Below, piece after piece: positions 34,503 to 63,479 of a DNA stretch of 64,000 bases. A program made the translations under genes and the position numbers. Positions within the stretch are counted from its first letter, which is position 1, and each line of letters opens with the position of its first letter. This stretch comes from Chiloscyllium plagiosum. Taxonomy: Eukaryota. The notes beneath the pieces are model-generated. The model was not told the DNA's origin, did no database searches, and was given only the letters and a program-made list of their open reading frames with translations. Location: contig NC_057718.1 in the NCBI RefSeq assembly GCF_004010195.1, positions 64,715,123-64,779,122 on the forward strand. Reading direction: 5' to 3'.

Positions 34503-35657
34503 CTATCTGCAGAAAAGTGGTGATTCCTAGTTAGTGATCAAGCAGTTGAAGCATCCTCAGTCCCTTCTCACTGAATCCTTAGAATGCCAACACAAACGTT
34601 TTAGGCAGAGAATTACCGAGCATGTCCCAGACTCATGGTAGTCAGAGCCTCAAGACTGAACACTTTCTCCTTGCCTTCACCATCAACTTCCACAGCTCCA
34701 TATCCAAGTAATTGAGCAAGCAACAAAGTGGAATAAATATTGGAGTCTTAGTTCCCAACACAGCAGATGGGTGCCACCATTACAAAATGACTACCATGGT
34801 CCATCGGCACAGGTGTATTTTCATCAGTCCTCACATTATTCAAGAGAAACGCAGTCCTTTATGTACGATTCACATGGCTCCCCCTCTAAATTGGGAGTAA
34901 ACTTCAAGTGCTGAGTGTGCACAGGAGTAAATGCACAACTGTTTGTTTGATCTCTAAACAGTTAAAGAGTGGAGATTGGACTCGAAGCAGCCAAACGGTT
35001 GCCTACCTAGCCAGAAAAGTAAAAGAATAAAGTTTGGACTGCGTTGGACTAATGTTGAATGCTTCTTGTGTCCACAGCTCTAAATATTATTGGCTACCAT
35101 CAACCTTAATTAATGTTTTATGTGCTGATAAATTACTGAGAGATGGCTTCTTAGTAGTAAATCTGCAACACACCATGAGGACTGAGTTTCCAGGTGGCAT
35201 TCCAATATTGTGCCCTGTTCACAAGGTGCTGGCCAAAACAACAGGCATTCTCTATCTTCTTGCCATGCCCTTCTCATTCACAACTTTGTCTTCTTTCCCA
35301 TCTTTATACTAGTTTTAATTAGCATTACTTGCATTTTACTGATTATAACTCTGGCTCTAAGGCCACAAACCTCAGTGGTGTGGCATCCTTTTTTTTGAAG
35401 TAAATGTCATTTCTTTGCTTCACATAGCTGAACATGAATTCATCAGATGAGGCCCAACCCACTCCCCAACCACCAACTTTACCTAAAGGGAGCATCATTT
35501 GTTTTCAGGTTAATTGCTGATCCAGTCAAAGTATTTGGTGTTTTTCTTTGCTTTTTCATGTTGTTGAAGACAGCAGGGAATGTTTGGGTATGTGATGAGG
35601 GACTTGGTTCTGACTTCAGATCCCTTTGCTCTCAGTCGTGTGTTAAGTAGTTTGCAT

Positions 35658-35857
35658 CTATCCAGGTTTTTGCATGACGTGGAGAATGAGCAGAAGTAAC
35701 AGAGTCAAAGCAAAGCTGTTCGAAGTGAGAGGAGGTGGGTGAGAAGGGCACTCAACCGGAGGCCATATCTGTCCAGATAGCACTTCTGTTCGATAAACCA
35801 TAGTACAGAGCATTTCCGCAGGTGTCTCTCCTTCACTGATGATCAATTCATTGAAAT
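35658..35857 (-). CDS. Terminal coding exon: FNELIISEGETPAEMLCTMVYRTEVLSGQIWPPVECPSHPPPLTSNSFALTLLLLLILHVMQKPG*
   Basis: Acceptor gactgtcag, phase 1. Non-repeat ORF ending in small residues (TSNS) plus a hydrophobic tail, resembling a GPI signal. Confidence 0.65.
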
Positions 35858-36736
35858 CTGACAGTCACAGTCTAAACTATATCATTACAGCAGGGTAAGA
35901 ATGTGAATGCTAGTGGCTATCAAAGTGGTTGTAGCCATGAAATTCGAAGCATGTGACTCCTTCCATCTTTCAGTAGGCAAGTGATATCTCGCAGTTCATG
36001 CACTGATGCATGAAAGGGGTTAATGATGTTCCATATCTCTGTGTTTCTGTCACTCTTTTTATAAAGCCAATTGTAAGGTTTTCTGCAGGGCATTTTTATT
36101 CACTCCCACCCCAATCCCCTTTCTAAGCACCTACTGATTGGCAGAAGTGTTTTGTCATTTGAAATTCTACTCCTGTGCATCAGAGTTTGTTGGGGCTTAG
36201 ACAATCAGACTGAATTTCCTCACATTTTGACAAACAGCTTCCTGACACTTTTCCCCCTGCCCACGCAATGTGAGAATGATTAGAGAGACATGTAATGTGT
36301 GGCCAATCCTATTTAAGCTGCTTTACAACATTGAACAAAATTATAATTTGCCCCTGTATGAGTTTTATCTCGAATCAAGCAAATAGAATAACTCAAACAA
36401 CAAGATGCATGCAAGTTATTTGCTTTGTTGCAAATATTTTCAATTGACATATTCTCCTGCTTTTCCAGTCCTCTTCACTGTGTACAATCAAATATTCAGT
36501 GGAAGAGGACCCACCACTGCAACACTGTGAGTGAAGAATAACTTCAATATTCTTTGAATTTTTAAACTGATCTGGTAGGGGGAATGATCTCATTTTTCAA
36601 GGGCAAACATCCATGGTACTTCATTTTGTGTTGTCCTTTTATGACAGAAGTTGGACTTGTACACTACAGTGATTATTTCTGAATCTCAGGCCACTTTGAT
36701 CAGTCCATAGGCATTGACTTTGAAAATGTTTCTTAC

Positions 36737-36780
36737 CTGTTGAATGGTACCTGACATCTTTAACGAGGTTTATTATGCTT
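36737..36780 (-). CDS. Exon 8 (44 nt, phase 2-1): SIINLVKDVRYHST(D)
   Basis: Acceptor cttattttcag, donor CAG|gtaaga; both near consensus. Confidence 0.65.
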
Positions 36781-37094
36781 CTGAAAATAAGTGCTGAAGT
36801 TCGAGCTTCTCCTGTTTCAGATGATTAATCAGCAGCTTGACTGGCTGGTTAAAGGACATGTCCAGGCTAGATATTGATGTGAAATATCCATTTGGCTAAG
36901 CCAGGAAATGAGTAATTAATCTCAAAACCAGAGTTTTCCAAAGTTAAGTCACAAACAAAAATTTTGTGCTACAAGACCTGAGACTGTGGTGCCTGTCACG
37001 GAGCTCGATGAAATTAGAAATGATGTTCCCAAACTGAGCATGCCTTGCTCCCATACTTCTTCCATTGGGGTCACAACAAATTCCAGCCTTCAAA

Positions 37095-37502
37095 ATCAAG
37101 TCATGGAGGTCTGCAGCACACCCCCAAAGACCCTTTGGCCCATCAAGTCTACGCCAGTCAAAAACCATCATGTTAACTATTCTAATCCAATTTGCTAGCA
37201 CTTGGTCCACAGCCTTCTATGGCTTGGCATCACATCCAACTACTTCTTAAATGTTATGAGGGTGTCTACTACTACCAACCTTTCAGACAGTGCACTCCAG
37301 ATTCTTACTACCCTCTGGATGAAAATATTTTTTCTCACATCCCTTCTAAACCTCTGCCCTTTACCTAAAATATGTAACCCTAGTCACTGGTATCTCCATC
37401 AAGGGGAAAGATTTCTTCCTGTCTACACTATCTATGTCCCTCATAATTTTATACATCTCTATTATGACCCCCTCAGCCTCCTCTGCTCCAAGGAAAACAG
37501 CT
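37095..37502 (-). mobile_element. Old CR1 3' fragment
   Basis: Similarity to the other CR1 3' ends in the window. Confidence 0.75.
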
Positions 37503-38151
37503 CAACCACAAATGGGGCCACCATCGGAAAAGGTTTGGAAGGGCATTGATCATGACCAAACCAACCTCACTGGGGGGTGGTGTGTTATTTCTCTGCATTA
37601 TGAATCAAATAGACAAATAAAACCACAATGATTGCACATTCTTAAATTTTTAAAGTATCATTTATGGGATGGGGGCATTGTTGCTAGAGAATAATTTATT
37701 TCCCCTGCCTCAATGCCTAGAAGATGTTTGAGAGTCAGCCACATTGCTGTGGGTCTGCAGTCATGCTGTCATCATTCGGGCAACTTTTAATTCCACAATT
37801 TTAAGTGAATTCAAGTTTTACTATCTACTATGGAGCGATTTAAACCTATATCTTAGAGCATTAGCTTGGGTTTCTGGATTACTAACCCAGTGACATTATC
37901 ACAATGCTACTGGATTGAAATTGCATATTTGGGCTATTAACATTTTTTAAAAAGTTGTTCAAATAAAATATGCAGACACACAATATAATGGCAACTCAGT
38001 AAGTTACAATCCCACTACCTTTAATAAATAATGTAAAAGAGTGTACTATTCCAGTAAGCAACGCTAGTCCATTTGAAACAAATTGAAATGTAAGTAAACT
38101 GAAGTAACCTGAAATGTGCAGAAATCGTTGTTTGACTATTATATTTTCTAG

Positions 38152-38323
38152 GCAAAAGTGAGGACTGCAGATGCTGGAGATTAGAGTCGAGAGTGTGGTG
38201 CTGGAAAAGAACAATAGGTCAGGCAGCATCCGAGGAGCAGGCTTTCTGATGAAGGGCTTTTGCCTGAAACGTCAATTCTCCTGCTCCTTGATGCTGCTGT
38301 GCTTTTCCAGCACTACACTCTCT
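38152..38323. mobile_element. Penelope-type hairpin insert with imperfect 17-bp TSD
   Basis: actattatattttctag (38135-38151) vs actattgtattttccag (38324-38340); inverted arms. Confidence 0.78.
38240..38285 (+). ncRNA. Minimal hammerhead ribozyme-like motif
   Basis: CTGATGA (38246-38252), stem AGGGC-TTTT-GCCT, GAAAC, GTC: the canonical core order. Confidence 0.6.
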
Positions 38324-38384
38324 ACTATTGTATTTTCCAGGTTGGATCTCTAACTTACAGACAAACACAGTGTCAAGAACATAC

Positions 38385-38422
38385 TCCAGTGATGATGCAA
38401 TGGAAGAGGTATAGCAGTGTTT
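38385..38422 (-). CDS. Exon 7 (38 nt, phase 0-2): KHCYTSSIASSL(E)
   Basis: Donor GA|gtatgt, weaker acceptor aatgcaaacag. Bridges the phases of exons 6 and 8. Confidence 0.45.
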
Positions 38423-39301
38423 CTGTTTGCATTCAAATGTGTTTTTTCAAACATGTAACAGACGATATCCAGAACCTATTAGCTTTTCAGCTTATCAAAA
38501 ACTTTGGATTCTTTTATATTTACCAAATTTTCTGCGGTAAACATGGAGAAGAAGAATTTTATAAACCTATTCTACTTGTTCATTTCTCTCATTGGCAGAC
38601 ATTTTTAGAAAATTGCACACACACTCTAAAACCAAGTTATAATGCAAAAAAATGGTAATTGCTTATCCAGCAATTAGGTGCCACTAAAGAACAATATTTA
38701 TTATCGTCAAATGAATAAATCTGGGGGCTGAAACCAGTCAGCTTTAAGTCATATTTTTGTAGATTCACTAAATTTATGCAAAATGACTAACATAATTTGA
38801 AAAAAAAGTTGCCATAAAATACACAAGGTAGCTATAGTCCAATTACATGAATATTTGTTGTAGAAAAAGCCATTGAATCATATTGAAATCTACTGAATGA
38901 TCATGTTGGAATATTTATAGAACTTTCTGGATTTTCAAACCATTAGTGGCCCTGCCTAGTCTCACTTCCTGGGATCCTTTAATTAACGTTTCTACCTTTT
39001 TCTTCTTCTTTAAGTCTCTTCTTAAATCTATCTTCATTTTTGACCAAACTTTTGATCACCTTGCCTATTTATGATGTAGATGAAATAATAAAACCAGTTA
39101 TAAGTTAGTTCAAAAAGGAAGATAATATAAAGTAAACTTGATAGAATTATTTGAGGAGATAACAGAATTGGTAATTTGAAGAAATGTGGAAATGATGTAT
39201 ATGGACTATTAAAAAGCCTTTGAGGAATTGTTTGGGAGATTCTTGGAGAAAGTCGATGGAAAAAGGGGTTTGGCAGGAAATCAGATTAAAAACTGATTAG
39301 A

Positions 39302-39470
39302 GTTGAGAGTGTGGTACTGGAAAAACACAGCAGGTCAGGCAGCATCCGATGAAGGGCTTATGCCCGAAACATCAATTCTCTTGCTCCTTGGATACTGCCT
39401 GATCTGCTGTGCTTTTCCAGCACCACACTCTCGACTCTGATCTCCAGCATCTGCAGGCCTCACTTTCTCC
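39302..39470. mobile_element. Penelope-type hairpin insert with perfect 15-bp TSD
   Basis: TAAAAACTGATTAGA at 39287-39301 and 39471-39485; loop has CCGATGA-AGGGC-TTAT-GCCC-GAAAC. Confidence 0.82.
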
Positions 39471-39887
39471 TAAAAACTGATTAGAAAGACACAAAACATC
39501 CTTGAACATTTTCTTACAATATATCATTGCTGTTTTGTGATAAACTTAAAGAACATGGTTACAGTAGCGATGGACAGATATGTTTGCAAAAGCATTGGGC
39601 ATAAGTTAAAGATAGAGAGGTATTCATATCTTAGGAATGGAGAAACATTCATGCAGAACAAGAAATACCAGTTTTACTTCCACAATAAGATGATAGTCTA
39701 TGTCATAAAGAGGTATCCAACACAAACCTAGTGACAGATTGATGACATTGCTTTCAAGATTTGCAATAAATATATAGAAGGCTGACAACTTGCAAAAGGA
39801 ATTATTGTTGTATAAAAGCTTAATCATGTTCTGTGTGAGCGTCTTGAAAGTGTTATGCAAACAAGTATCAAGGAAGGTACTGCTTAC

Positions 39888-39942
39888 CTCTCTTGTAGTA
39901 TAGAATGAAACATTATTTTGGAATGAAATGATTGAAGCATAC
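39888..39942 (-). CDS. Exon 6 (55 nt, phase 2-0): YASIISFQNNVSFYTTRE (alternative frame MLQSFHSKIMFHSILQER is also open)
   Basis: Acceptor ggtttcag, strong donor GAG|gtaagc. Confidence 0.58.
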
Positions 39943-40517
39943 CTGAAACCTCTCAAAGAAGATAAAGTCCAAATAGAGCAGACCAAACAAGGCCTCTTGG
40001 CTTTGAGGAGCAAGATAGGTCCAGTAAAACATTTACTGTCTGTTCAATTGGATCAGAATGAGTAATATTTGGCATTTCAACGTGTAGTTTCTAAAGTAAG
40101 CTCTCAGTACCAATTCATTGTCACTTGAGGATCTCCTACTGCCAATGCTGAGTGTCACCTCCTGTCCCGGCATGTTGTCTCCAACAGAGGACTAGCCAAA
40201 GTGAAGAACCCCCTTCCTCAATCCACCATGAGGTCCGACCTCCATCATTGTTTGTCATGTGGAAATGCCGCATATTCAGCCATGAACACCACTGGTGATG
40301 GTACCAAACTAACTGACATCTCTAGGAAGCAGGGCATCCAGTTACATGCAAATGTAAGCCTTCATCTCAAGCAGTTAACAACCTGACAACAATAGAGTTT
40401 GGTTGTGAATTATTGGCCCTGTGCAGATAGTCTTGCCCTGATTTTTTCAGTGAGGGGGTTGAGACTATTACTTCTGTGAAAAATGCATACTTGATAATAC
40501 TATATATAGATTGATTT

Positions 40518-40518
<1 letters not shown>

Positions 40519-40542
<24 letters not shown>
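40519..40542. repeat. (TA)n microsatellite
   Basis: Direct observation. Confidence 0.95.
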
Positions 40543-40548
<6 letters not shown>

Positions 40549-41112
40549 CTACTTTTTTTAAACCATCTTTTTCACCAGGCTGGTTTCACATTCATCATGA
40601 TTAACTTGATATACTTATTGCGAACCTTTGTCGTACAACTGATTGCCTCTCCTATTAGAATCTCTATTCCAAGGTTCTTTATAGCAGAGAGATCGCATCT
40701 GATCAATATGTTCAGATAGATCCTTGAAAGTAGCACCATACATACACACAAATTCAGAGCAGAAATAGGCCTTGAAGCCCATTCAATATGATCACGGCTG
40801 ATCTGATTGTGACCTCAACTCCATTTTGCTGCACAACCTTTAAGTCTCTTGTTAGTCAAGAATCTATCTACCTCTGCTTTAACCATACAGGTAGTTCTCC
40901 TATAATGTTGTAGCTGTGTTCCAGCAAAGCCTTACTTAATAGAAAATAGTGTAATAGAAATAATGGGACCTATGAGAAAAGTGGGGTTGGGACAGACCAG
41001 CAAAAAATACCAATTACAATTGTTCAAAAATCACCCAAAGGTCTAATACAAGGTATAGCACAGCCTGAATGAAGGCTGAAATCATATTTATGAACAAAGC
41101 AAAAGTAAGATT

Positions 41113-43112
41113 GGGTGGCACGGTGGCTCAGTGGTCAGCACTGCTGCCTCACAGTGCCAGGGACCTGGGTTCAATTCCAGCCTTTAGTGACTTCTTGTGT
41201 GGAGTTTAGATATTCTCCCTGTGTCTGCATGGACTTCCTCTGGGTGTTCTGGCTTATAGAACAGTACAGGCACTTCAGCCCTTGATGTTATGCTGACCTG
41301 TTGAACCAACCTGAAGCCCATCTAACCTATACTATTCCATTTTTGTCCATATGCCTATCCAATGACCATTTAAATTCTCTTAAAGTTGGTCAGTCTACTA
41401 CTGTTGCAGGCAGTGTGTTCCATACCCCTACCAATTTCTGAGTAAAGAAACTACGTCTGACATCTGTCCTATATCTATCACCCCTCAATTTAAAGCTATG
41501 TCCCCTCCTGCTAGCCATTGCCACCTGAGGAAAAAGGCTCTCACTGTCCACCCTATCTAACCCTCTGATTATCTTATATGTCTCAATAAAGTCACCTCTC
41601 AACCTCTCTGATGAAAACAGCCTCAAGGCCCTCAGCCTTCCCTTGTAAGACCTTCCCTCCATACCAGGCAACATCCTAGTAAATCTCCTCTGAACCCTTT
41701 CCAGAGCTTCCACATCCTTCCTATAATGCGGTGACCAGATCTGTCCACAATACTCCAAATGTGGCCGCACCAGAGTTTTGTAAAGCTGCAGCATGATCTC
41801 ATGGTTCCGAAACTCAATTCCTCTACCAATAAAAGCTAACACAACATATGTCTTCTTAACAACCCTATCAACCAGGGTGGCAACTTTCAAGGATCTATGT
41901 ACATGGACATCGAGATCTCTCTGCTCATCTCCACTGCCAATAATCTTACCATTAGCCCAGTACCTGCATTCCTGTTACTCCTTCCAAAGTGAATTACCTC
42001 ACACTTTTCTGCATTAATCTCCATTTGCCACTTCTCAGCCCAGCTCTGCAGTTTGTCTATGTCTCTTTGTAATCTACAACATCCTTCGTCACTATCCACA
42101 ATACTACTGACCTTAGTGTCATCCGCAAATTTACTAACCTATTCTTCTACACCCTCATCCAGGTCATTTATAAAAACGACAAACAACAGTGGACCCAAAA
42201 CAGATCCTTGCGGTACCCCACCAGGAACTGAACTGCAGGATGAATATTTCCCATCAACCACGATCCTCGTTCTTCTTTATGCTAGCCAATTTCTGATCCA
42301 AACCATTAAATCACCCTCAATCCCTCTGCATTTTGTGCAATAGCCTACCATGGGAACCTTATCAAATGCCTTACTGAAATCCATACACACCACATCAACC
42401 ACTTTACCCTCATCCCTTTTTGGTCACCTTCTCAAAGAACTCAATAAGGTTTGTGAGGCACAATCCATTCTTCACAAAACCGTGTTAACTATCCTTAATC
42501 AACTTATTCTTCTCTAGACGATTATAAATCCTATCTCTTATAACCATTTCCAACACTTTACCCACAACTGATGTAAGATTCACAGGTCTATAATTTCTAG
42601 GGTTATCGTTACTCCCCTTCTTGAAAAAGGGAACAAATTTGATATCCCCCAGTCTTCTGTCACTATTCCTGTAGACAATGATGACATAAAGATCAAAGCG
42701 AAAGGTTCGACAATCTCCTCACTGGCTTCCCAGAGAATCCGAGGATAAATCCCATCCGCCCCAGGGCACTTATCTATTTTTACACTTTCTAGAATTGCTA
42801 ACACCTCCTCCTTATGTACCTTAATCTCATCTAGTCCAGTAACCTGTATCTCAGTATTCTCCACAACCACATTGTCTTTTTTAAGACAATGGTCCGTGGT
42901 TTCCTCCCACAGTCCAAAGATGTGCAGGTTAGGCGAATTGGTGATACTAAATTGCCCATAGTGTCCAGGGATGTGTAGGTTAGGTGCATTAGTCAGGGGA
43001 AATGTAGGGTAATATGGTAGGGGAATGGGTCTGAGTGAGATATTTTCAGAGGGTCGGTATGGGTTTGTTGGGCCAAATGGCCTGTTTCCACACTATAGGG
43101 ACTCTATGATTT
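41113..43112 (+). mobile_element. HE1-type SINE split by a CR1 (halves ~41113-41255 and ~42893-43112)
   Basis: The SINE sequence resumes ggtttcctcccacagtccaaag after the LINE. Confidence 0.85.
41256..42885 (-). mobile_element. 5'-truncated CR1 LINE
   Basis: LYKTLVRPHLEYC, WQMEINAEKCEVIHFG, DGIYPRIL. Confidence 0.92.
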
Positions 43113-43589
43113 TACGAGAAATTTAACACAGTACATCTTTAAAAATGTAAGAAAGCTTCTGTCTGTGCAGTACTTCTCACAGAATGCTGCTGTGTTGTCA
43201 GCTGACATCGGTGCATGCGTGGCCCAGCGCGAATATCGGAGCTCACATCGCACATGCACAGAACAGTACATAGACTTCGGCACATGCGCGTAATGGCATG
43301 AAGACTGGCACTGACATCATGCTTGCATGAACAGAGGCGCATGCCCAGAACAGCAAGAACACTAGCGCATGCGCAGAATGAAGCGCACAAACTGTTCCTC
43401 ACTGGAATCGCGCTATTGACAATAGAGGTAAGCGTTCTCCAAAATACCGTTCCCTAATTCTTCAGCAATGTTATAGCCAAATCATGCTGCTGAAACACAC
43501 GTTATCTCAGACTACCTGTATTCAATATCACCATGCCCCAAGGAAGAGAATTCCAAACACTCAAGACTTATCTTTCTCTCTTACCATAA

Positions 43590-44880
43590 AATACAAAAGC
43601 AGAAGAAGGCTATTTAGCCCATCAAGCCTACTCCTCGTTCAACATGAGCATGTTTAATCCTCTATCTCTATGCCATATTTACACTCTCTCCCCATACTCC
43701 TTGATGCCTTTAGTCTCTGGAAGTTAATCTTATTTTTAAAAGTATATTTCGTGACTTCATTTACACAGCGTACTATGGTAGAGAGTTCCACAGGGTCACT
43801 ATGATCTAAGGGAAGAAATGACCTATCCTGTATCTTGAGACCATTACCACTGATTTAGGGTCCCCAGCCAAGTAAAACATCACCTCTGCATCCAGTCTGT
43901 CCTGTCAGAACTTAAATGCTACATTGAGATCCTCTCTAATGCACACAGTCCTTGTCGACCCAACTTCTCCTCAAATGTCAATCCTGACGCCCCAGGGATT
44001 GGTCTGGTTAACATTTGCTGAATCCTGTCTATGGCAAATATAGGAGACAAGGAGATCAAAATCACACACAATACTCCAAGTATTGATCTCACCAAGGCCA
44101 TGTACCAGCTGCAATATGACTTCTTTCCACCCTCCTACAAAGTAGGTCAACACATCATTTGTCTTCCTAATTGAATGCTGCATGCTTACTTTCAGTATCT
44201 GGTGTATAAAGACACACAGGTCCTTTTGTTCATCAAAGTGGAAGACCCTTTTGTTTCAAACAGTGTCTCCTAATTTTAGTCTGTCTCACAAAGGAAAACA
44301 TCCTTTCAACTTCACCTTGTTACGTCATCTCTGGATCTTAACTGTTTCAAATAGATCACATCTTTTTCCTGCACACCAATACAGTATAGGCCCAAAGTAT
44401 CCAAAATCCCTCAATCCAGGTATCCTCTTTTCTGAACTGGTTCTAATGCATCTGCCCTTCCTTTAATAAGGAGCTCAAAACTGTTAAAAGTACAGGGATG
44501 TGGCCATATTGACACCCTATACAAATACAGCAAAATATCCCTACTTTTACAGTATATACCTCTTTCAGTAACAACAACATCAATTTGACTGAATCACACA
44601 TTAGACCCACATGCTAATTATATGTGATTCATATACCAGAACACCCAGATCCCTTTGTATCTGAGTTTTGTGAACTCTTACCATGTAAATAACATTTTTT
44701 TGTTGTTTCTGCCAAAGTTACGAGTTCAAATTGTTTTATATTTTACTCCATTTGTCAACGTTTTGTTTACTCATTTAACCTAGCTATCTCCCTTTGAAAA
44801 TTCAATATATCACCTTCACAATTTATTTTCTGACCTATCATGGTGTTATTAGCAAGTTTAGCAAACTCACATTTGGTTCA
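43590..44880 (-). mobile_element. Old CR1-like LINE remnants
   Basis: Degenerate RT C-terminal similarity (QMLTRPIPGASGLTFEEKLGRQGL). Confidence 0.6.
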
Positions 44881-45774
44881 TTCATTCAAGACATTAACAT
44901 TGAGATAAAATTAAAATAGGGGTACAAGGATAATGGAATCCTTTCACTTGGACATGAGAGGGCAGATGGTTCTTGTGTGTAACTTCACATCTAAGTAACA
45001 GTATTTCTGATAGCATTGTATTACATCACTGCCTTTACTGTCGAATCAATTTGGGATGTTCAAATCTCTGGTATGGGGCCTGAACCCTTCACCACCTGAC
45101 CCCGTCACAGGAAAGTTATCACTGAGCCATAACCAATCTAAACCAATTTGCTTTAGCACTTCCTTTGTTCAAGAAAAAGGTGTTAAGTCTTGCTGTAATT
45201 GCAATCTATTATAATTACCCAGAAGCTGGATGGAAGACCGATGAGATACATTGATCAGAATGATTGATAGTAATTGTCCTGATCACCCCTTCAATGGATT
45301 GCTACAGTTCATATTTAGTTTCAAGGTTTGAATCAATGCAAAAGACTGACTTCTGCTTTGTGAAAATTCTGTCCAACAGTCATTAGGTTACAGTTTTTAA
45401 AAATGTATTCTTTAATATCAGATTTACCAACAATCTACTAAAAAATTTACTTCAATTTACAGAATTCACACTCTCATCCATTTGCTATCATTAGCAATAG
45501 CAGAAACAACACCAAGACAAGGCGAGAAACATCTGGCTAACGACAAAAAAAAGTAAAGCCCTCCTGATTAGTCCACTGTAAGGATCTGAAAGGATTGCAA
45601 CACTTCTCCATGTACAGATGTCATGATGCAAGACTCAAAATGTGTTCAACACAGGTGTTTGCACTTTTTCCCACCCTCAACCCTCCTTCAACCCATTGTT
45701 ATAACTCGTACAAAAGACTTGAGACTTTGTCATAATGAAAATGTCAGCAATAGGAAATCACACAGAAATGTGAT

Positions 45775-46320
45775 CAGGTTGGTTTGCAGGGAAGATACTG
45801 GAGACTGGTGGGAAAGAACTGTAGCTCAATGGATCTGGAGGTCAGGACAGTGGCGAGAGAATACGGGGTCCTGGAAGTAGAGGCTGGGTGAAGGGATTTG
45901 AGGGGTAGGGAGCAAAGGGTGGTGGACGGGGGAGCGCGGTCATGGCAGCCATAAAGCTTAGAGCTGGCAAATAGTGTAACTGAGCTTGAGAGAGTTTTGG
46001 ATATTGACAAGAGTGAGGCTGGACGAAGAATGGGGTGTTTGGGGGGTGGGTGGGTGGAGGTTGTGGAGTCAGTAGAGATGAAATATTGGTGTCCTGATGG
46101 TTGGGGCTGTGGAAGGAGAGAAATTCAGCCATTGGAGGATGAGTGAGTTTGAGGTGGAAGGAAGGTTATGGGGCTTGAGGTGGGGGAGCAGCGAAGGAGG
46201 GAGGTTATCTTAGAGGTGAGGAATGATGTTGATCTTTCAGAAGGAAGTTTTGGATCAAGACCTGAATATTGGAGACGAAGGATCTGGGGACCAGGAGCAG
46301 TGGCTGGTGTGGCAAGAACC
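45775..46320 (-). mobile_element. Old L2/CR1-clade LINE internal remnant
   Basis: Purine-rich decayed coding-like stretch; family assignment tentative. Confidence 0.4.
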
Positions 46321-46480
46321 AAGTATTTATTACTTATTTGCTGTTTAGTCCTGATTTTCCAGAGGCCATACTTACTCTGGGAAAGTGATTTTGCAATAGG
46401 GATTTTCAGCCTCTTGCTTGCATTTCATATTAGACCACTATCAATGTCAAGGAAAGCTAAAGGTCTTCTCAAACTTGTCC

Positions 46481-47207
46481 TGTTATGGACCAGGCCAGAC
46501 TCCCTCTAAACATTTCAAGAAAGTCGCCTAGACCCTAACTTTGTTAGTTGCTTTAAGCAGGTGTAATGCGGATATTCCAGGAGGGATGCAATTGGTCAAA
46601 CCATGTAGTTTCAAACAAATCTGAATTTATTTACAAGATAACTGAATGAAACACAAACAAAAAAGAACAGAATACTGAATAACTTAGCCTATCCGAAAAC
46701 CAAACAGATCTTCCCAACTTAGTGATGCTGTTCCAAATACTTGCAACAATCCCCATAAACACCCCCTGTCACAAAGGTAAAATCAAACACAGCGTCTTAT
46801 GGGAGAGAAGTCAGAGAGAGAGGAGTATCAGCATGAACCTGCTTCTTTGGGCCCAGCAGCTTTTAAACTGCCTGACTGCATTCAGTGAATAGCCAGACTG
46901 CCAAAGACCAAATCAAACCAGAGAAAAGCTGAGCTGACAGATCTGGTCTCTCCCCTTTCACTGCATAGAACATAGAACAGTTCAGCACAGAACAAGCCCT
47001 TCAGCCCACGATGTTGTGCCGGCCATTATGCACAAGTGTTCTTTCTAAAAACTTGAAAGCCTTTTATCTGAGGCAGTATCTGGTAGCTATACTCAAATTG
47101 GCCCCTAAAACACATTCAAGCCCAGACTTTTCAGAACCAGTGTTTTAAAAATTTCCTGAAAAAAAACAAGGACAACATAACTTTGTTAAAGGAGTAGCAT
47201 TATCACA
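46481..47207. mobile_element. Solo LTR with GTCC target-site duplication
   Basis: TGTTATGG...TATCACA ends; GTCC at 46477-46480 and 47208-47211; small LINE-tail insert near 46965-47025. Confidence 0.85.
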
Positions 47208-47466
47208 GTCCTTATCCAAAATAACAAGAGTCATACTTCTAGTCATTATTTTGAGGTCTTAGGAACTCTGTTGTACCTGAAAAATGCACAATAAGAGACT
47301 CAATTCCAAATATTTGCAAGATTGTTAAGGATCCAATAAAAATACTCACAGATGATCCCTCAGAGAATATATAGGAATTTAAGAGGTCACTCATTGTAGT
47401 CTAATTTTCTAAATCTAATCTAAAGTCAGATCCACTGATTTTTGGATAATCAGATACCAGACATAC

Positions 47467-47513
47467 CATGAATGATGAACATTTTGGATCTTAGGGAAGT
47501 TCCAACACATTGA
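47467..47513 (-). CDS. Exon 5 (47 nt, phase 0-2): SMCWNFPKIQNVHHS(W)
   Basis: Acceptor ttttaaacttcccacatag, donor TG|gtatgt; 114-nt intron to exon 4. Confidence 0.52.
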
Positions 47514-47627
47514 CTATGTGGGAAGTTTAAAATCCTAATTGACAGTTATGTGGTATCTGGAACCCTCTAAGGAAATCCCCAGCTCTGAGTTCGAGTCAAG
47601 CACTTTGAAAAAATACAACTTTCTTAC

Positions 47628-47676
47628 CTTAAAGCTAGCCAGGACAAGATAGCAGAATGAAAACATGTTTAAACTT
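47628..47676 (-). CDS. Exon 4 (49 nt, phase 2-0): SLNMFSFCYLVLASFK
   Basis: Acceptor tttcatagtttctcag, donor AAG|gtaaga. The only open frame is the required one. Confidence 0.6.
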
Positions 47677-47789
47677 CTGAGAAACTATGAAACTGACTTT
47701 CTTACCACTAACTGTAAACGCTGCAATGAGTCATGACCCTGCCCCAAACACCCAACCACCCCCTCCAAAGTCGAAGATCCCTCAATTCT

Positions 47790-50640
47790 CTAGCTGCAAG
47801 AGAGGTGTCAGAGTACTGGTGGGCAGCCAATATGCTACCATTATTCAGGAAGGGAAGAAGAGATAAACCAGGAAATTACAAGTCAGTCAGCCTAATCTCA
47901 GCGATAGTTAAATTATTGGCAACAATTCTGTGGAAAATAATTAATCTGCACTTAGATAGGCAGGGATTAATCAGGAACAGTCAGCATGGATTTGTTCAAT
48001 GGAGGTTATGTCTGATCAACTTGATTAAATCTATTGAAGTGGTGACCAGGTGCATGGATAAAGGTAATGCTTTCATGGAATCACAGAACCATCAAAGTTT
48101 ACAGTATGGGAAGAGGTCATTTAGCCCATTAGTTTGTACCGGCTCCTGAAACAGTTATCCAGTTAGTCCCATTCTCCAGCCCGAGCTGCATTGCCCTTTA
48201 AATTCATCGCTTGCAAATGAAATGCATCTCACTTTTGAAACTCGCTGTGGAATCTGCTTCCACCACTATGCCAGCAGCATATTCCAAATGCTAACAACTC
48301 TCTGAGTAAAGAAGTTTGTCTTCATCTCATTTCTGGGTCTCTTGCTGATGATCTTGAAATTATGACCTCGAGTTACTGACATTTGGACTAGTGGAAACAG
48401 GGTATCCTTCTTAACCCCGTCAAAATTGTTCAAACGTTTGAACACCTCAATAAAGTCTCCTCTTGATCTTCTCTGCGCCAAGGAGAATAAGCCCAATATC
48501 TCAAATCTTTCCTTGAATTGAAAATCAGTCATTCTTTGTATCATTCTGTCCTATCTTATTTGCACTCTCTCCAGGACTTTAACATCCTTCCTTAAGCTTC
48601 CCAGAACTGAACACAATACTCTGAATATAGTCTGAGCAATGATTTATATCCTTCTTTTATACTCTGCGCCTGTGTTTATAAAACCAAGGATCATAAAAAC
48701 CTTATTAACAATAGTTCCAACTTGCCTGGGCATCTTCAGTAAATTGTGCACTTGAACCCAGAGGTCCCTCTTCTCCTGTACACCCCTCACAGTTAGACCA
48801 TTGCTTCTTAGTCATAGAGTCATAAAGATGTACAACACGGAAATAGACCCTTCGGTCCAACTTGTCCATGCCGACTAGATAACCCAACCCAATCTAGTCC
48901 CATTTGCCAGCATTCAGTCCATATCCCCCCAAACCTTTCCTATTCATATACCCATCCAGATGCCTTTTAAATGTTGCAATTGTACTGACTTCCACCACTT
49001 CCTCTGGCAACTCATTCCATATAGTACCACCCTCTGAGGTCTCTTTTATATCTTTCCCCCCTCACCCTAAACCTACACCCTCTAGTTCTGGACTCCCCTA
49101 CCCCGAGAAAAGACTTTGTCTATTTATTCTATCCATGCCCCTCATGATTTTATAAACCTCTATAAGGTCACCCCTTAGCCTCTAACACTCCAGGGAAAAC
49201 AGCCCTAGCCTATTCAACCTCTCCCTATAGCTCAAATCCTCCTACCCAGGCAACATCCTTGTAAATCTTTTCTGAACCCTTTCCAGTTTCACAACATCTT
49301 TCCTGTATTGTTTATCGATGTTTCTTCCACAAAAATGCATTATCTCACTTTTTCTGCATTGTAGGGATTAGATTCCCTACAGTATGGAAACAGACCCTTC
49401 AGCCCAACAATTCCACACTGACCCTCCAAACAGTAACCCGCCCACACTCATTCCCCTACCCTATATTTACCCCTGACACTATGGGCAATTTAGCATGGCC
49501 AATCTACCTAACATGCACATCTTTGGATTGTGGGAGGAAACCGGAGCATGTGGAGGAGACCCATGCAGACACAGGGGGAACGTGCAAACTCCACACAGAC
49601 AGTCACCCGAGGCAGCAATCGAACCCAGGTCCCTGGCACCCTGGGGCAGCAGTGTTAACCACTGAGCCATTCATCTGCCAGGTGTTCGCCCTTTTGGCCA
49701 ACTTGTTAGTAGATCTCCCTAACTCATCAGTATCATCCTTACATTTCACTGTTCTCCCCAGTTTAGTATCATCTGCAAATCCAAAGGTTTTTCCCTCAAT
49801 GCCGATCTCCAAGTCATTTATATAAATCAGAAATAATAAGGTTTCCAGCAGTGATTCCTGTGGAACACTACTTTCAATGCCATAGAGTTAGGGTTAGGTC
49901 TCTCGTCTAAAAAATGCCAATCTATACCTACTCTCTGTTTCCTATCTCTTAGCCAATTTATAATCTATGCTGCCAAGGATCCATCAATCCCAAACATATT
50001 TCTGATTTGCTAACCAACCTGCCATGTGGTTGACTCAAGATGTCAGCAATGCTTTTGATAAGGGCCAACATGGGAGACTGATAGTGAAGGTAAAAGCTAA
50101 TGGGATCCAGAATGGGCTGAATGGCAGGAAGCAGAGAGTGATGGTCAAGAGGTGATTGTGTGACTGGAAGCCTGTCTACCCTCTCTATGCCAACCAAAAT
50201 CCTTATAAGACTCCAATAGCTTTGTTAAGCATGATTTGCCTTTCATAAACTTCTGCTGGCTTTGTCCTATCCCATTAAAACTTTCCAAATATTCTATTGT
50301 CACATCTTTTATACTAGATCCTAGGATTTTTCCCAACTGAAGTCAGGCTAACTGGTCTATATTCTCTGTTCCTTTTCTCTCTCTCCTCTTTTATTTTAAA
50401 ATAATCAGGTTATATTTGCCACCCTCTAAATTATAGGAACTTCTCTAGAGTCTTTTGAATTTTGGAAGGTGACTGACAATGTGGTCAATATTTCCATGAC
50501 CACACCCTGATGCACACTGGGATTATTAGACCCTAGTGATTTGTCAGACCTTAAGCTCATTAACTTACCCAGTACCAATTTCTTACTGACACTGATTTCC
50601 TTCAGTTCTGCTCTCTCAGTAGATTCTTGTTTCCTGAAAA
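47790..50640. mobile_element. Cluster of CR1 fragments in both orientations
   Basis: QHGFVQWRLCL (+, ~47790-48075), FADDTKLG (-), younger 3' fragment at 48811-49305 (-). Confidence 0.85.
49365..49670 (-). mobile_element. HE1-type SINE
   Basis: Same body as the other copies. Confidence 0.9.
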
Positions 50641-50687
50641 CCTCTGGAAGAAAATTTAAAAAGGCAGCTAAAGTATTCATAACCTCT

Positions 50688-51705
50688 GTAGATATGATCT
50701 ATATGGACTTCAGTAAGGCGTTTGACAAGGTTCCCCATGGGAGAATCATTAGCAAGGTTAGATCTCACGGAATACAGGGAGAACTAGCCATTTGGATACA
50801 GAACTGGCTCAAAGGTAGAAGACAGAGGATGGTGGTGGATGGTTGTTTTTCAGACTGGAGGTCTGTGACCAGTGGAGTGCCACAAGGATCGGTGCTGGGC
50901 CCTCTACTTTTTGTCATTTACATAAATGATTTGGATGTGAGCATAAGAGGTACAGTTAGTAAGTTTGCAGATGACACCAAAATTGGAGGTGTAGTGGACA
51001 GCGAAGAGGGTTACCTCAGATTACAACAGGATCTGGATCAGATGGGTCAATGGGCTAAGAAGTGGCAGATGGAATTTAATTCAGATAAATGCGAGGTGCA
51101 GCATTTTGGGAAAGCAAATCTTAGCAGGACTTATACACTTAATGNNNNNNNNNNNNNNNNNNNNNNNNNNNNNNNNNNNNNNNNNNNCTATCGGAAAGAT
51201 GTTGTGAAACTTGAAAGGGTTCAGAAAAGATTTACAAGGATATTGCCAGGGTTGGAGGATCTGAGCTACAGGGAGAGGCTGAACAGGCTGGGGCTGTTTT
51301 CCCTGGAGCATCGGAGGCTGAGTGGTGACCTTATAGAGGTTTACAAAATTGTGAGGGGCATGGATAGGATAAATAATCAAAGTCTTTTCCCTGTGGTCGG
51401 GGAGTCCAGAACTAGAGGGCATTGGTTTAGGGTGAGAGGGGAACGATACAAAAGAGACATAAGGGGCAACTTTTTCACGCAGAGAGTGGTACGTGTATGG
51501 AATGAGCTGCCAGAGGATGTGGTGGAGGCTGGTACAATTGCAACATTGAAGAGGCATTTGGATGGGTATATGAATAGGAAGGGTTTGGAGGGATATGGGC
51601 CGGGTGCTGGCAGGTGGGACTAGATTGGATCGGGATATCTGGTCGGCATGGACAGGTTGGACCGAAAGATCTGTTTCCATGCTGTACATCCCTATGACTC
51701 TATGT
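50688..51705 (+). mobile_element. Young 5'-truncated CR1 LINE spanning an assembly gap
   Basis: Intact [25 protein letters not shown]; no stops in the sequenced part. Confidence 0.95.
51145..51187. other. Assembly gap (43 N)
   Basis: Run of n. Confidence 1.
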
Positions 51706-51780
51706 CTCTGAGAATTGTCAAATTAACTGAATTCAGAACCCTGTGATAAAGATAGGTCATTGAAGGATGCAAGCAGAAAT

Positions 51781-52091
51781 GATTAGATTAGATTACTTAC
51801 AGAGAGGAAACAGGCCCTTTGGCCCAACAAGTCCACACCGACCCACCGAAGCAAAACCCACCCATACATTTACCTCCTTCACCTAACACTACAGGCAATT
51901 TAGTATGGCCAATTCACCTGACCTGCACATCTTTGGACTGTGGGAGGAAACCGGAGAACCTGGAGGAAACCCACGCAGACACGGGGAGAATGTGCAAACT
52001 CCACATAGTCAGTCGCCCTGAGGCAGGAATTGAACCTGGGTCTCTGGCGCTGTGAGGCAGCAGTGCTAACCACGGTGCCACTGTGCCGCCC
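51781..52091 (-). mobile_element. HE1-type SINE
   Basis: (GATTA)n tail on +, tRNA-like head on -. Confidence 0.92.
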
Positions 52092-52138
52092 ACAAATAAT
52101 AATATAATGAGAGGACTTAGTGATGATATCAACAAATG

Positions 52139-53609
52139 CAGATAGTTCTGGCAGCACGATTTAGCTGTAATGTCACTGAAGAATTAGGTAACAGTATTTT
52201 GGAGAATGTTTACCTCTGTTGACAATAGCACAATTTCAGTGGGGATCGGTTTGTACACTTCGTTCTGCCCATGCGCCAATGTGCATGCCAAAATCTCTGC
52301 GCCGTTCTGCACATGCGCCGGTGTTCTTGCTGTTCTGTTCATACTCCCATACAGCGTGATGCCTGTGCTGGTCTATGCGTGCGTCGAAGTCTATGTGCCG
52401 TTCTGCGCATGCGCGATGTGGGCTCCAGTCTTCATGCCGTTCTGCACATGTGCTGATGTCAGCTGCCAACACAGCCGTTTTCTGTGAGAGATAGACAATA
52501 GACAATTGGTGCAGGAGTAGGCCATTCGGCCCTTTGAGCCAGCACCACCATTCATTATGATCATGGCTGATCATCCACAATTAGTATTCTGTCACTGCCT
52601 TATCCCCATCACCCTTGATTCCACTATCCCTAGGAGCTCTATCCATCTCTTTCTTGAAAGTATTCAGAGACTTGGCTTCCACTGCCTTCTGGGGCAGAGC
52701 ATTCCATACACCCACCACTCTCTGGGTGAAGAAGTTTCTCCTCAACTCTGTTCAAAATGGTCTACCCCTTATTTTTAAACCGTGTTCTCTGGTTCTGGCC
52801 TCACTCATCAGCGGAAAAATGCTTCCTGCCTCCAGAGTGTCCAATCCTTTAACAATCGTATACATCTCAATCAGATCCCCTCTCAATCTTCTAAACTCAA
52901 GTGTATACAAGTCCAGTCGCTGCAATCTTTCAACATATGATAGCCCCGCCATTCCGGGAATTGACCTCGTGAACCTACACTGAACCCCCTCAAGAATTCC
53001 TCAAATTTGGAGACCAAAACTGCACACAATCCTCCAGGTGTGGTCTCACCAGGGCTTTGTACAGCTCTAGAAGGACCTCTTTGCTCCTGTACTCAATTCC
53101 ACTTGTTATGAAGGCCAGCATGCCATTAGCTTTCTTCACTGCCTGCTGTACCTGCTTGCTTGCTTTCATTGACTGATGTACAAGAACACCTAGATCTCGT
53201 TGTACATCCCATTTACCTAACTTGACTCCATTTAGATAGTAATCTGCCTTCCTGTTCTTGCCACCAAAGTGGATAACCACACATTTATCCACACTAAACT
53301 GCATCTGCCATGCATCCGCCCATTCACCTAGCCTGTCCAGCTCACAGGTACTGTATAGAGAACAACTTTCTTGCATTTTTTAAATGTTTGTGTTAAAGTT
53401 ATTTTTGTTAATAAATATAATTTTAATCTTCATTCATACTATACTTTGCGTAACACTTTTGGTTGATTTTTGCATGACTGTAAGTGATTTTTTTTGCTGG
53501 TCTGTCCCATGCCCTGCTTTCCCCATAGACCTCATTATTTTATTAAGCGATTTTCTATTAAGCGAGGTTTTGATGGAACACAGCTATGGCATTATAGGAG
53601 AACTACCTG
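52139..53609. mobile_element. Second Tigger-like DNA element copy, with a CR1 fragment (~52490-53345, -) inserted
   Basis: CAGATAGTTCT...GGAGAACTACCTG termini; body is the reverse complement of the 40888-43518 flanks. Confidence 0.7.
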
Positions 53610-53833
53610 TCGCTATCAAAATTGCAAAAATGTTTTTTTTAAATTGAGAGACACAGCAGGCTGCTTTCTTTTATTTCAAACTTTGAAAGGTGGGGATATA
53701 AATAATTGATCAGCTTGATAGTTCAACAAACTTTATGACTAATCTTCTACGACCATCATGCCCATTCTTGATCTTTGTAAGTCACAAATTGTGGAAACTG
53801 GACTTCACCCCAGCAAGAATGGAATCTATTTAC

Positions 53834-53908
53834 CTCAGTGCTGAGTACAAATGGGGCCTACTCATTTCAGATTTCTCAATGTGTGAGTCACAACCTGTCC
53901 ACTTTCCC
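53834..53908 (-). CDS. Exon 3 (75 nt, phase 2-2): GKWTGCDSHIEKSEMSRPHLYSAL(R)
   Basis: Strong acceptor tcctctttctgctgttag, donor AG|gtaaat, open frame. Confidence 0.62.
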
Positions 53909-55156
53909 CTAACAGCAGAAAGAGGACATGTTGAAAATAAGGACAGGGCTTTCTGATCTGGAGTCCGGCATCATTTTGGATTAGGCGTGGGTATCCTTGA
54001 ATCCATAAAAATCCAGGCCCAGAGAACTGAAGTCATTGCTCTTGCTGAGGCCTGTTATAGTTGACATACATCATGCTGCATGGTAATCATATTACTGTAT
54101 CTCAAAAATTCAATACTGAGCACAGATACAAACACCAGAACCTCACAGATACCATCTGATGCTACACAAACTGTCCAATTCAGATGAACTCTTTGTTAAT
54201 ATTGGACACACTGCAATATTATTGTGGTCAAGTGATCACGGACCCAAAGTTGGTCCTTCTAAATTGACTTTATTCAGAGAAATCCAGCCTGCCTGAAAAT
54301 TAGCCAAATGAAATTAAACTTCAGCCAGCAACTATCAGCTCCAGAGAACGGTGGAAATCAAGGTCAAAGAGGTCAGAAAGATTCTGAGGGACCAGTTACG
54401 ATCAGGCGAGGGTTGTGTATTGGAACAGTATTAATCAGACTTTCTGTCAGTCCCTGAAACCATGCACTGCACACCTCCCTGGCATGACAACAATGAAGGG
54501 CATTGGCTGGACCCCACTGGATGCTTTGAACCTAACTCATGACCCTATTGGCCAAAGGCCATACACTGTTTGGGGAGATCAGGAGATATTCACAACTGGT
54601 GAACATACACTGCTCAAAGAAAGAAAACTTCTGATGTTAAAATAACAAGAGATTGGTGGTCATTGTTCTTGAAAAGAGAAGAGTAAAAGATGACATATTA
54701 GAGACCTTTCAAATTATAAAGAATTTTGGTGGAGTAGATGTAGAGAAAATGCTTCAACTTGGGGGGAATTCAAATCTAGGGATCATACATTTATAAAATA
54801 GAAAATACTGAAGTCAATAAACAATTTAGAAGGAACTGGGTAAGTCCAAAACAAAAAAAACAAGAAAGTGCTGGCAAAACACAGCAGGTCAGGGAGTAGC
54901 TATTAAGGGAGAAACAAAATCACCATTTAAGGTAAATGCCGTCCAATGTTTTAATTAGCCTGGGATACTGCCTCTAATATACAAATTCTAACTCAGAAAT
55001 TGAGTAAATGGTGATCTCTGACTTCGCTGCTCCAAAAAATTCTTTGGTTTTACTTTTCATGAGAAAGTTATGGGTTAAATTAGAAACCATTTCACAGCTT
55101 ATTGTGGTAGTCAAGTGAATGCAGCCAAATCCTTGTTAGGATGTTACATGATCAGG

Positions 55157-55880
55157 ATGTTACATGATTGCTACCATTCTTTGAAATGATTTCTTAAGAA
55201 AATTAATTTATTGTAGGGATGTAAGTTAACAATTAAATTTTGATTAAATATTTCTTGTATTAAATTATGTCACAATGCTGGTCTGGTACAAGATTACTTT
55301 GCCCATGAGCATGTTTTTCAGACAGGGGGTAATTGACCAGGCTCCATCATGTCTGAAATTTGAATGGTTCACTCGGGCCTTGTTGTTCACCCTAACAGAT
55401 AGTGCTTCAGACCAAAAGCTTGAAAGGTCTTTTGAAAAACTGGTATGGTCAAGGTGGTGTGGCCAGCTCTCTAGCTGTGCAGTTCAATTCGGTTTGGAAG
55501 TGAGTTGAGTAAGAGTCACAGGGGAAACTGGAAGTCTTCTCTCTGTCCTTCTGCTCTTATGATTTTGAAATGTAAGATGCCTGTGCCATTATTTACTGTT
55601 TGTGCTAACGGATGTGTGTATTGGGACTGTTGCAAGTTTTTTTCAGAACAGCCTCACTAAATCAGGTTGGGATAGGATAAGTTATCTGGTATTTTGTTTT
55701 CTGTTCTTTGTGTTTCATTCCGTAATTTGGTAAGTAAATTTTATTTGTTTAAAACTTGGCAGTCAACCCAGCTAATTTACTCTGGGAATATCAACCATAC
55801 GCCTAGCTAAACAAATAGTATCGTTACGGTCTGAGCTACCTGCTTAAAGTGTTTTGAGGGGTATGGCTTCGTCCATAACA
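55157..55880. mobile_element. Older solo LTR related to 46481-47207, opposite orientation
   Basis: Ends GTCCATAACA, the reverse complement of TGTTATGGAC; colinear similarity along the terminal part. Confidence 0.6.
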
Positions 55881-56142
55881 ATTGGATGAGAATATCTCAG
55901 AGGGATGTAGCATACAAACTTGTAGGAAATCAGAAAAATTACAACAGAGTAGGTTGATGTTTGCCTTCTAAGATACTGCATTGGATATTTCCAACAGCCT
56001 CATAGTAAAGTGGCCAACTATAAATAACTAAAGGTTTTAAAAAAAAAATTGTTTTTTCATGTGCCATCTCCAGCTAGGCCAACACTTATTGCCCATCTCT
56101 AAATAACAATTTAAAAACACAATGACTTCACTCATATATTAC

Positions 56143-56205
56143 ATGGCTCCACTCCTATGGCTTGCTTGGCATTCTTCCTTCGTTAATGAGTTCATGTAGA
56201 TTGTT
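56143..56205 (-). CDS. Candidate exon 2 (63 nt, phase 2-2): TIYMNSLTKEECQASHRSGA
   Basis: Acceptor ctttatttcaactgatgcag, donor AT|gtaata. Open in the required phase; symmetric, so the model also works without it. Confidence 0.4.
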
Positions 56206-57952
56206 CTGCATCAGTTGAAATAAAGTTAATTGCTCTGAACATTACATATTATCACATTTGATCAACACATATAGGTGTATGGGTTGTTTGCTCTTATTGT
56301 TGCATCTCACAGTTGCAGTTACATTTTCTTGGTATAGTTAGAAAACATGCAAAATGTTCAGTCAGAAAATAAGAAAGAATTTAGAAGAAGCTTCACTCTT
56401 ATTAATATACCAGATTGTGCAATGAAACTCATCCTCCTCTTTTGTTCCTTAAACCAAAATCTAAAATGTATGCACTGGTCATTCTCCAAGTGTATGTTTT
56501 GATTTCAGAAATTAAATCCTGTTACACTGCCATCCTGCTAATGACATTGATGACTGACTATTGTGATACCATATACTGTATCCAATATATGAATGATTTT
56601 GTTTTGAAATGATTTCCTGTATTAAATGTCAAACATAGTGGAACTCTAGAGCTCCTGTACTGAATTATTTTGCTTTATAGTGGGATTGCTTTTTGTCAAT
56701 TGATTTGAAGCAGGATTTCACCAAAAGAACGTAAGTATAAATATAAATCCAAAATCAGCTCACAGAGTTCATTACAAAGCAGTTTCACTATGCCTTAAAT
56801 TCTAAAGTGCATGTACCTTTTCCCAAGTGATTAAAGATCCATTTATAATATGCATTAGGCTTATCAAGTATTGAGTAGAAAATAATTTCAAATGAGATGT
56901 TAAAAAGCTTTTATTGCATAAATACTTATTACTCTTGGGAGATTTAGAATTATTTCATTTAACCAACTGATATTGGAGTCGGTGATTCTTAAATCAATTA
57001 TTTTCTATCTTGCTGTTAAAATAAGTCTTAAATTAAATTACTGCATTGAAAAAAATAATCACATTAATGTTTCATTTCTACTATTTAAATGTTTGGGGCT
57101 CGGGTTTCACAGTTACCTTGAATTAGACTGTTGACTCTTCAAAATTAATATTAAGTTACTTTGTTAAGAAACAGCAATTTAAATATGACCGTTGAGGGCA
57201 GTTCACTGATAGCAAAGGACAAATGGATGGTTGACAAAGTGTCTGTCAATTTCAGTTGGAAGGTAAGATATGTCTGGGGGTTTGTGGAGGGTCTTGGGAG
57301 CTGTATAACTTACAGGGGTGTTCGAGCTTATCTGGGCTGAGGTTATGATTTTAGATTCAGCATGATGGGGTAGTGCTGCTGGGGCGATGTCCCATCTAGG
57401 GGATACAAGGGTTCTGGTGATGTTAGTTGGGAAGCGTCAGTGGTGACTTTGCAGGAGAGGTCAGTTTAAATGTTACCCAGAGATTAATGCTGGCTATTAA
57501 TCCTCTAACCTTTCCTGGGTAAGTATTAAGCCACAGTGAGTTGTGGAACGTTCTGTATTCAACTATTTTAATAGACTTTTATGGTAGGGTCCTGACTTGA
57601 GGGAATTACCCATTGGAAAATTCAGTTTTCTGGACAACTCCCACAGAGTCAGCAGTATCAGGGATTCCACATTGTTTGATGTGTAACACCAGTCCATGCT
57701 ACTCCAATGACTACCTGGCCATTGGAATATCTGAGCTGAGCCAACTATCTGCTGTTTCGATACACAGAAACAACATGCTGTTTCTTGAAAATTATAATTT
57801 GTTTAATTTCAAGCAAATGTCCTTTTCAGCATTTGCAACGGCAGCTTGTATCAAGTTATTTTGTTAATTCCAATTGCAGAAACAATTGTAACAGGCTTGG
57901 TGGTTTTGAGTAGTTTTAATTGGAGACAGAACTATTTGCATCAGTGACATAC

Positions 57953-58101
57953 ACATCTCCCATTCTCAAACACATAGGGTGGAATTTTCCAGACAGGTTA
58001 ATGCCATTAGCAATAGTAAGAAGGTTGAGAAAACACAGCAAAAGTAGAAAATTTGGATTCTTGATATCCATAAAAAGTATTTCCAAGTTTAAATGGTCCA
58101 T
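57953..58101 (-). CDS. Exon 1 of unidentified secreted/GPI-like protein: MDHLNLEILFMDIKNPNFLLLLCFLNLLTIANGINLSGKFHPMCLRMGD(V); start may be the Met at 58071
   Basis: Signal-peptide-like hydrophobic core ending ANG; donor GT|gtatgt, phase 2. Confidence 0.6.
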
Positions 58102-63445: not shown

Positions 63446-63479
63446 AATGAGAGAGACAATTTTAATTCTCTGAAGATTT

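Follow-up and report, generated by a model that had tools for sequence, protein, structure and literature searches.

Does the minus strand of a 64,000-nucleotide stretch of the genome of the shark Chiloscyllium plagiosum (NCBI RefSeq assembly GCF_004010195.1, contig NC_057718.1, positions 64,715,123 to 64,779,122; hereinafter, the window, with positions counted from its first letter) harbor a gene that annotation has missed, or does it only contain the pieces from which a gene-like model can be put together? The question is raised by a chain of nine small segments between positions 35658 and 58101 which the original prediction, with exons picked by eye, joined into a cell-surface protein of a family that it could not name. 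As a description, this model is accurate; in outline, it goes moderately beyond chance; in three of its exons, those of 63, 47 and 38 nucleotides (nt), it is arbitrary. Whether there is a real gene here, as opposed to a product of chance, is about an even call. The reading that we tentatively favor, quite possible if short of even, is that of an unannotated, fast-changing spliced gene that, judging from the sequence, would encode a small disulfide-bonded glycoprotein with a predicted surface anchor of the glycosylphosphatidylinositol (GPI) type and would belong to an as yet unnamed family.

The segments, here numbered e1 to e9 in the direction of reading, measure 149, 63, 75, 49, 47, 55, 38, 44 and 200 nt and join into 720 nt that code for 239 amino acids (aa). 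Just as had been claimed, all eight introns have GT-AG ends, the exons are in phase (end phases 2,2,2,0,2,0,2,1), and the joined frame lacks internal stops and ends with one terminal stop; the variant without the optional e2 keeps the frame and comprises 218 aa with seven mature cysteines. The ATG exon e1 (57953..58101) encodes a predicted signal peptide, with a hydrophobic core at about residues 18-31, followed by the N-glycosylation sequon N35 and by C44; its start context, a purine at -3 and a G at +4, is the same in 129 of the 1211 ATGs, and its donor, the sole one in its frame, is weak (top 27% of GTs). The uncertain e2 (56143..56205; phase 2/2) contributes C62. Strong sites flank e3 (53834..53908; acceptor in the top 0.4%, donor in the top 1.8%), e4 (47628..47676; donor in the top 0.2%), the phase of which fits e3, and e6 (39888..39942), which is open in two frames. 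Uncertainty also attaches to e5 (47467..47513), with a good donor (top 3.1%) and a weak acceptor, and the poorest support in the model is that of e7 (38385..38422), which carries C149 and has an acceptor that is the median AG. The strongest donor of all belongs to e8 (36737..36780; top <0.1%), and the last coding exon, e9 (35658..35857), for which an alternative acceptor at 35785 scores slightly above that of the model, contains C191, W205-x4-C210, a Pro/Ser linker, the hydrophobic tail and the stop. The second sequon is at 138, and the cysteines are at 23, 44, 62, 77, 104, 115, 149, 191 and 210, eight of the nine past the signal peptide. Repeats within the window overlap none of the nine exons.

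So what sets this chain apart from the surrounding DNA? A generic matrix of splice-site frequencies places e3, e6, e4 and e8 at ranks 9, 13, 22 and 24 among the 922 candidate exons of the whole window, repeats included; among the 11,130 bases outside repeats that the model spans, they are the only minus-strand candidates of at least 16 bits, with none on the plus strand. Three of them (e3, e4 and e8) have a single open frame each, which is the frame needed. The ends of the chain stand out as well: in hydrophobicity, e1 is third among 171 Met starts (12-residue mean, 2.68) and the tail of e9 is third among 220 frame ends, and e9, with its 46% GC and five CpG, is coding-like to a degree equalled by 5 of 516 background windows. 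A blind search, in which no exon was supplied, looked under two penalties for chains that begin with a signal-like exon, continue through inner exons in phase and end in an exon with a hydrophobic tail and, at both, returned e1, e3, e4, e6 and e8 together with the stop of e9. The respective scores, 54.7 and 29.1, were reached by 0 and 1 of 60 shuffles, compared to 8.8 and 5.8 on the plus strand. These observations suggest that the outline of the model, that is, a signal-peptide exon, four strong inner exons and a tailed last exon on one strand and in the right order, is better than what most shuffles yield, and the likely core of the putative gene consists of e1, e3, e4, e6, e8 and e9, whereas the linkers e2, e5 and e7 may be wrong.

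If this core belongs to a real gene, the fate of the product can be pictured from standard knowledge of the secretory pathway. Guided by its signal peptide, which would be cleaved near G33, the chain would enter the endoplasmic reticulum, N35 and N138 would receive N-glycans, and the cysteines of the ectodomain would pair as disulfides. The end of e9 shows the features of a predicted GPI-type signal, namely a polar Pro/Ser spacer, a hydrophobic tail of about 14 residues and four residues to the stop; because about 14 residues are too short for the usual membrane span, this tail would be swapped for GPI. The resulting ectodomain of about 180 residues could act at the cell surface as a cell-recognition or adhesion ligand. 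Solely the topology, the apparent fast change and an echo of TMEM95 that is discussed below point to such a recognition role, possibly between gametes.

Precedents for such an overlooked protein do exist: Bouncer and JUNO are GPI-anchored egg factors, and Bouncer, along with zebrafish Fam187a, was once missed by annotation (PMC13192892). The model has in common with Bouncer- and JUNO-like proteins the predicted topology of a signal peptide, a disulfide-bonded ectodomain and a GPI-type tail, whereas no sequence likeness to them was found and single exons had no Pfam match. In addition, the cysteine pattern of the model differs from the patterns of the Ly6/uPAR and folate-receptor domains. If real, then, this would be a shark surface protein without a recognized family that escaped annotation, another small, fast-changing recognition gene overlooked by the pipelines.

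There are, however, a number of considerations that weigh against this reading, and most of these are shared with the rival explanation that we regard as a serious one, if somewhat doubtful: that DNA between genes or deep within an intron happens to offer a start resembling that of a signal peptide, a hydrophobic end and, between the two, enough AG...GT pieces in phase to form a chain. To begin with the protein itself, the likeliest anchor site, S212, has a proline at the omega+2 position, where proline is atypical of GPI signals. Furthermore, the amino acid composition, scored by vertebrate amino acid frequencies against background, is background-like: the 188-residue ectodomain obtains -11.7 bits, which corresponds to z = +0.6 relative to translated non-coding DNA and to z = -4.0 relative to the average vertebrate proteome, and the five best exons taken alone have z = +1.2 versus background and -2.6 versus coding. 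As controls, eight of the nine coding stretches taken from retroelements in the window had positive scores, above that of the ectodomain, and none of 120 reverse transcriptase (RT) proteins from databases was as low. Given that the cysteines carry 6.8 of the 11.7 bits of this deficit, and that fast-changing secreted proteins would be expected to drift to background composition, this result weighs against the model without settling the matter.

The splice sites, too, can be read in favor of chance. Outside the span, 18,126 bases contain four equally strong minus-strand candidates (at least 16 bits) and one on the plus strand, and the null probability of four candidates, estimated from 150 resampled sequences, is 0.49, 0.19, 0.07 and 0.04 at 14, 15, 16 and 16.5 bits, respectively. 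Within the span, strong donors (at least 7 bits) show no strand bias, with 17 on the minus and 19 on the plus strand, and there is no strand skew of the kind that would be a sign of transcription. The region at 4-21 kb gives a chain of its own, with scores of 30.5 and 22.7 versus the 54.7 and 29.1 of the model; this rival chain, at 15424-9147 on the minus strand, combines strong candidates for small exons (15180, 11376) with a signal-like start and a frame with a hydrophobic tail, and served as a false-positive control within the window. The chain score was devised after the model had been seen, and the genome has 241 windows with notes, so the chain P of near 0.02 is weak and suggestive only. 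What nevertheless speaks against chance is that the blind search favors the model over 59 to 60 of 60 shuffles, that the four best inner exons are placed, correctly ordered, between end exons that are themselves top-ranked, and that e9 is coding-like in GC and CpG. If the chain is a product of chance after all, it demonstrates how easily a model with a signal peptide, a GPI signal and tidy family echoes can be assembled from 20 kb of AT-rich DNA.

Regardless of the choice between the two, the middle of the protein, as printed in the original prediction, is unreliable. Among in-phase alternatives, e2 is second of 29, e5 is 12th of 38 and e7 is ninth of 11; the second open frame of e6 joins e8 and e9 without e7; and it is this second frame that the blind search itself followed, with different linkers and with the acceptor at 35785. 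With these alternatives, the weak acceptor of e7, the weak donor of e1 and the two open frames of e6, neither the middle of the protein nor the number of its cysteines is fixed by the sequence. The eight mature cysteines counted previously with the optional exon included are thus correct for the join as made. The middle exons had been called the least certain; e2, e5 and e7 each have many comparable alternatives, and e3, e4, e6 and e8 have high splice scores. An amphipathic helix across e7 and e8 was considered as support for e7 and dropped, since 5 of 10 alternative exons have a higher moment.

Could relatives of the protein help to resolve the issue? The queries were single exons (21-66 residues), which have little power in Pfam and PDB searches, and no relatives emerged, an outcome that may count in favor of chance. 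Among longer proteins, none of 33 candidates for e9 and none of three for e1 was usable at an E value of 10. A comparison of e9 with 1.84 billion representatives gave a sole match, to P0001, a hypothetical protein of 129 aa (37% identity over 44 residues, E = 4e-4), which we rejected because the score was summed over tandem repeats; P0001, a singleton with three to four tandem 26-residue repeats encoded on one 2.5-kb contig, is judged to be a chance match. Neither Pfam nor the PDB sequences yielded a match for single exons; Atlas gave no usable match for e9 and e1, a result that is uninformative given the low recognition; metagenome contigs contained no usable match to the exon queries; and an exact look-up of four single-exon frames returned nothing, as did Rfam over 32600-49000. 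The fold predicted for e9 from the single sequence (predicted local distance difference test, pLDDT, of 64) consists of a helix at residues 13-27, at a pLDDT of about 57-62, and a tail helix, with strands absent, and a PDB structure search with this low-confidence fold gave no match. In a control for coverage, a stretch of the window from a long interspersed nuclear element (LINE) retrieved 183 proteins, the best 120 of which were 49-76% identical and included none named as shark proteins; the other copies of this stretch in the window are 36-86% identical. The same search brought up P0005 and P0011, vertebrate-type LINE RT fragments on 627-base contigs filed under Proteus mirabilis, likely a case of host contamination of a bacterial assembly. 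The four entries listed as containing the sequence at 35200-35870 come from a single study and are not recorded as RNA, which has no bearing either way. Searches of the literature brought up no account of a shark gene of this kind. Likenesses to the Frizzled cysteine-rich domain, saposin, CSF1 and RNase T2 were considered and dropped because cysteine counts or catalytic motifs did not fit, and show how cheap such echoes are.

An intermediate solution is that the exons are real and the product is not the one proposed: the locus could be a gene in decay, could make a spliced RNA that does not code for protein, or could encode a protein through other frames or further exons, for example, with the second frame of e6 continuing into e8. 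We consider this unlikely. In its favor, strong splice sites are found beside a background-like composition, and the route of the blind search through a different frame of e6, different linkers and the acceptor at 35785 is compatible with it, as are further fairly strong candidates on the minus strand at 59760-59681, 59196-59123 and 58228-58155. The latter lie upstream of e1, all within 1.7 kb, and might be 5' untranslated exons or chance occurrences. What speaks against such a solution is that the chain in the original prediction is open across 720 nt and retains an intact hydrophobic tail.

Is it conceivable, finally, that the protein belongs to a known family of gamete proteins in disguise? 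The IST superfamily includes IZUMO1-4, SPACA6, TMEM95 and TEX51. Its defining features are a distorted four-helix bundle, a triangular face and a double CXXC (PMC9482655; PMC12615630), the latter linking the N-terminal helix to the beta-hinge (PMC9482655). Echoes of TMEM95 and IZUMO-type proteins had been pointed out as speculative, with the remark that CxxC pairs are lacking, and both the caution and the remark were justified: the 239-aa model contains no CxxC. A missed exon cannot supply the first of these motifs because e1 and e9, where the motifs are expected, are contiguous and, with both family-defining motifs absent, we do not file the model as a member of IST.

A comparison with TMEM95 is nonetheless instructive. 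The disulfides of human TMEM95 are C35-C45, C105-C134 and C109-C128 (PMC9546558), and numbered residues are available for D26, S28, G29, R30, S48, K67, R70, R73, Y87, W90, E102, W129 and R131 (10.64898/2026.05.14.724122); there are seven exons in the human gene, and in the bovine protein exon 6 encodes a 23-residue span (PMC3879157). Opposite D26-x-S28-G29-R30-x4-C35 of TMEM95, the model has N35-x-S37-G38-K39-x4-C44, a motif that is unique among the approximately 128,000 six-frame residues of the window; opposite C45..S48, it has C62..S65, although the C-x2-S pattern occurs 389 times in the window; opposite E102..C105, E146..C149; and opposite W129..C134, W205..C210, with 51 occurrences of W-x4-C. 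The four patterns follow each other in the same order as the numbered residues of TMEM95, and, like TMEM95, the model would be a small protein with a signal peptide, a C-terminal anchor and small exons. C44/C62 and C149/C210 are candidate counterparts of C35-C45 and C105-C134, with altered spacing, whereas both partners of C109-C128 are missing from the model, so that the absent cysteines would make up whole disulfide pairs. The hydrophobic tail begins 12 residues past C210, as it appears to do in TMEM95, given the bovine span (PMC3879157) and the length of the human protein.

All this would be accommodated by a far-diverged offshoot of TMEM95 in cartilaginous fishes, a helical sperm-surface protein of gamete adhesion or fusion that kept C35-C45 and C105-C134, shed both CXXC motifs and C109-C128 as pairs and traded the membrane span for a GPI anchor. 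This scenario is quite unlikely: the double CXXC is absent; the offsets of 9, 17, 44 and 76 could be accounted for only by three long insertions; hand-picked exons (e2 and e7) contain two of the four matches, and the motifs were chosen post hoc; K67, R70 and W90, which bind the egg and FIMP, have no clear counterpart; the model is about 60 residues longer, with nine exons instead of seven and a tail of about 14 residues instead of the 23-residue span in exon 6; single exons match nothing in Pfam or PDB; and the single-sequence fold of e9 is, at low confidence, a helix rather than a beta-hairpin. The known distribution is of some relevance as well. TMEM95 has been reported only as far back as amphibians (PMC9482655) and is described as scattered in a source the distribution figures of which may include shark TMEM95 (PMC13192892); another account places TMEM81 in cartilaginous fishes and does not mention TMEM95 in that passage (10.1101/2023.07.27.550750). 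Should the scenario turn out to be true, the TMEM95 line would go back beyond amphibians, to the base of jawed vertebrates, and the shark protein would show, as an experiment of nature, whether the fold and function of IST proteins depend on the double CXXC. This would bear on the purpose of the CXXC pair and on the time at which the sperm fusion complex of vertebrates acquired its accessory subunits.

As for the setting of the favored gene, a putative surface glycoprotein, the window has 40% GC, and 28% of it is self-repeated; its one assembly gap, of 43 N (51145-51187), falls within a LINE copy located in the e3-e4 intron. Short interspersed repeats are present as well and appear to be of a shark type. 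A Pfam scan of all 359 stop-free frames of at least 45 aa in the non-repeated part of the window found, above the cut-offs, only retroelement domains and recognized no host gene. At 2.9-3.2 kb, there is an esterase-like frame associated with a LINE; the other matches, at 23.5-26.2 kb and 61.6-63.2 kb, are to pieces of the RNase H, integrase and SCAN domains of long terminal repeat (LTR) elements. Past the stop of the model, the nearest candidate poly(A) signal is an ATTAAA on the minus strand (35314..35319), at about 340 nt, with no AATAAA within 3 kb.

Several minor observations can be added. The acceptor of e6 at 39943 is also a 9-bit donor (CAG/GTATGC), either by chance or as an overlapping acceptor/donor of the kind known from recursive splice sites. 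The decayed LTR retroelement at 23549-26170 on the minus strand consists of SCAN, zinc-knuckle, integrase zinc-binding and RNase H pieces, with the integrase upstream of the RNase H piece in the reading direction; the remains of another one, on the plus strand at 61647-63607, are spread over several frames and comprise pieces of RT, of RNase H and of the integrase zinc-binding domain. At 5169-5013, 4600-4511 and 4490-4379, the minus strand contains a trio of high-scoring exon candidates, with no Pfam match among the frames that were scanned.

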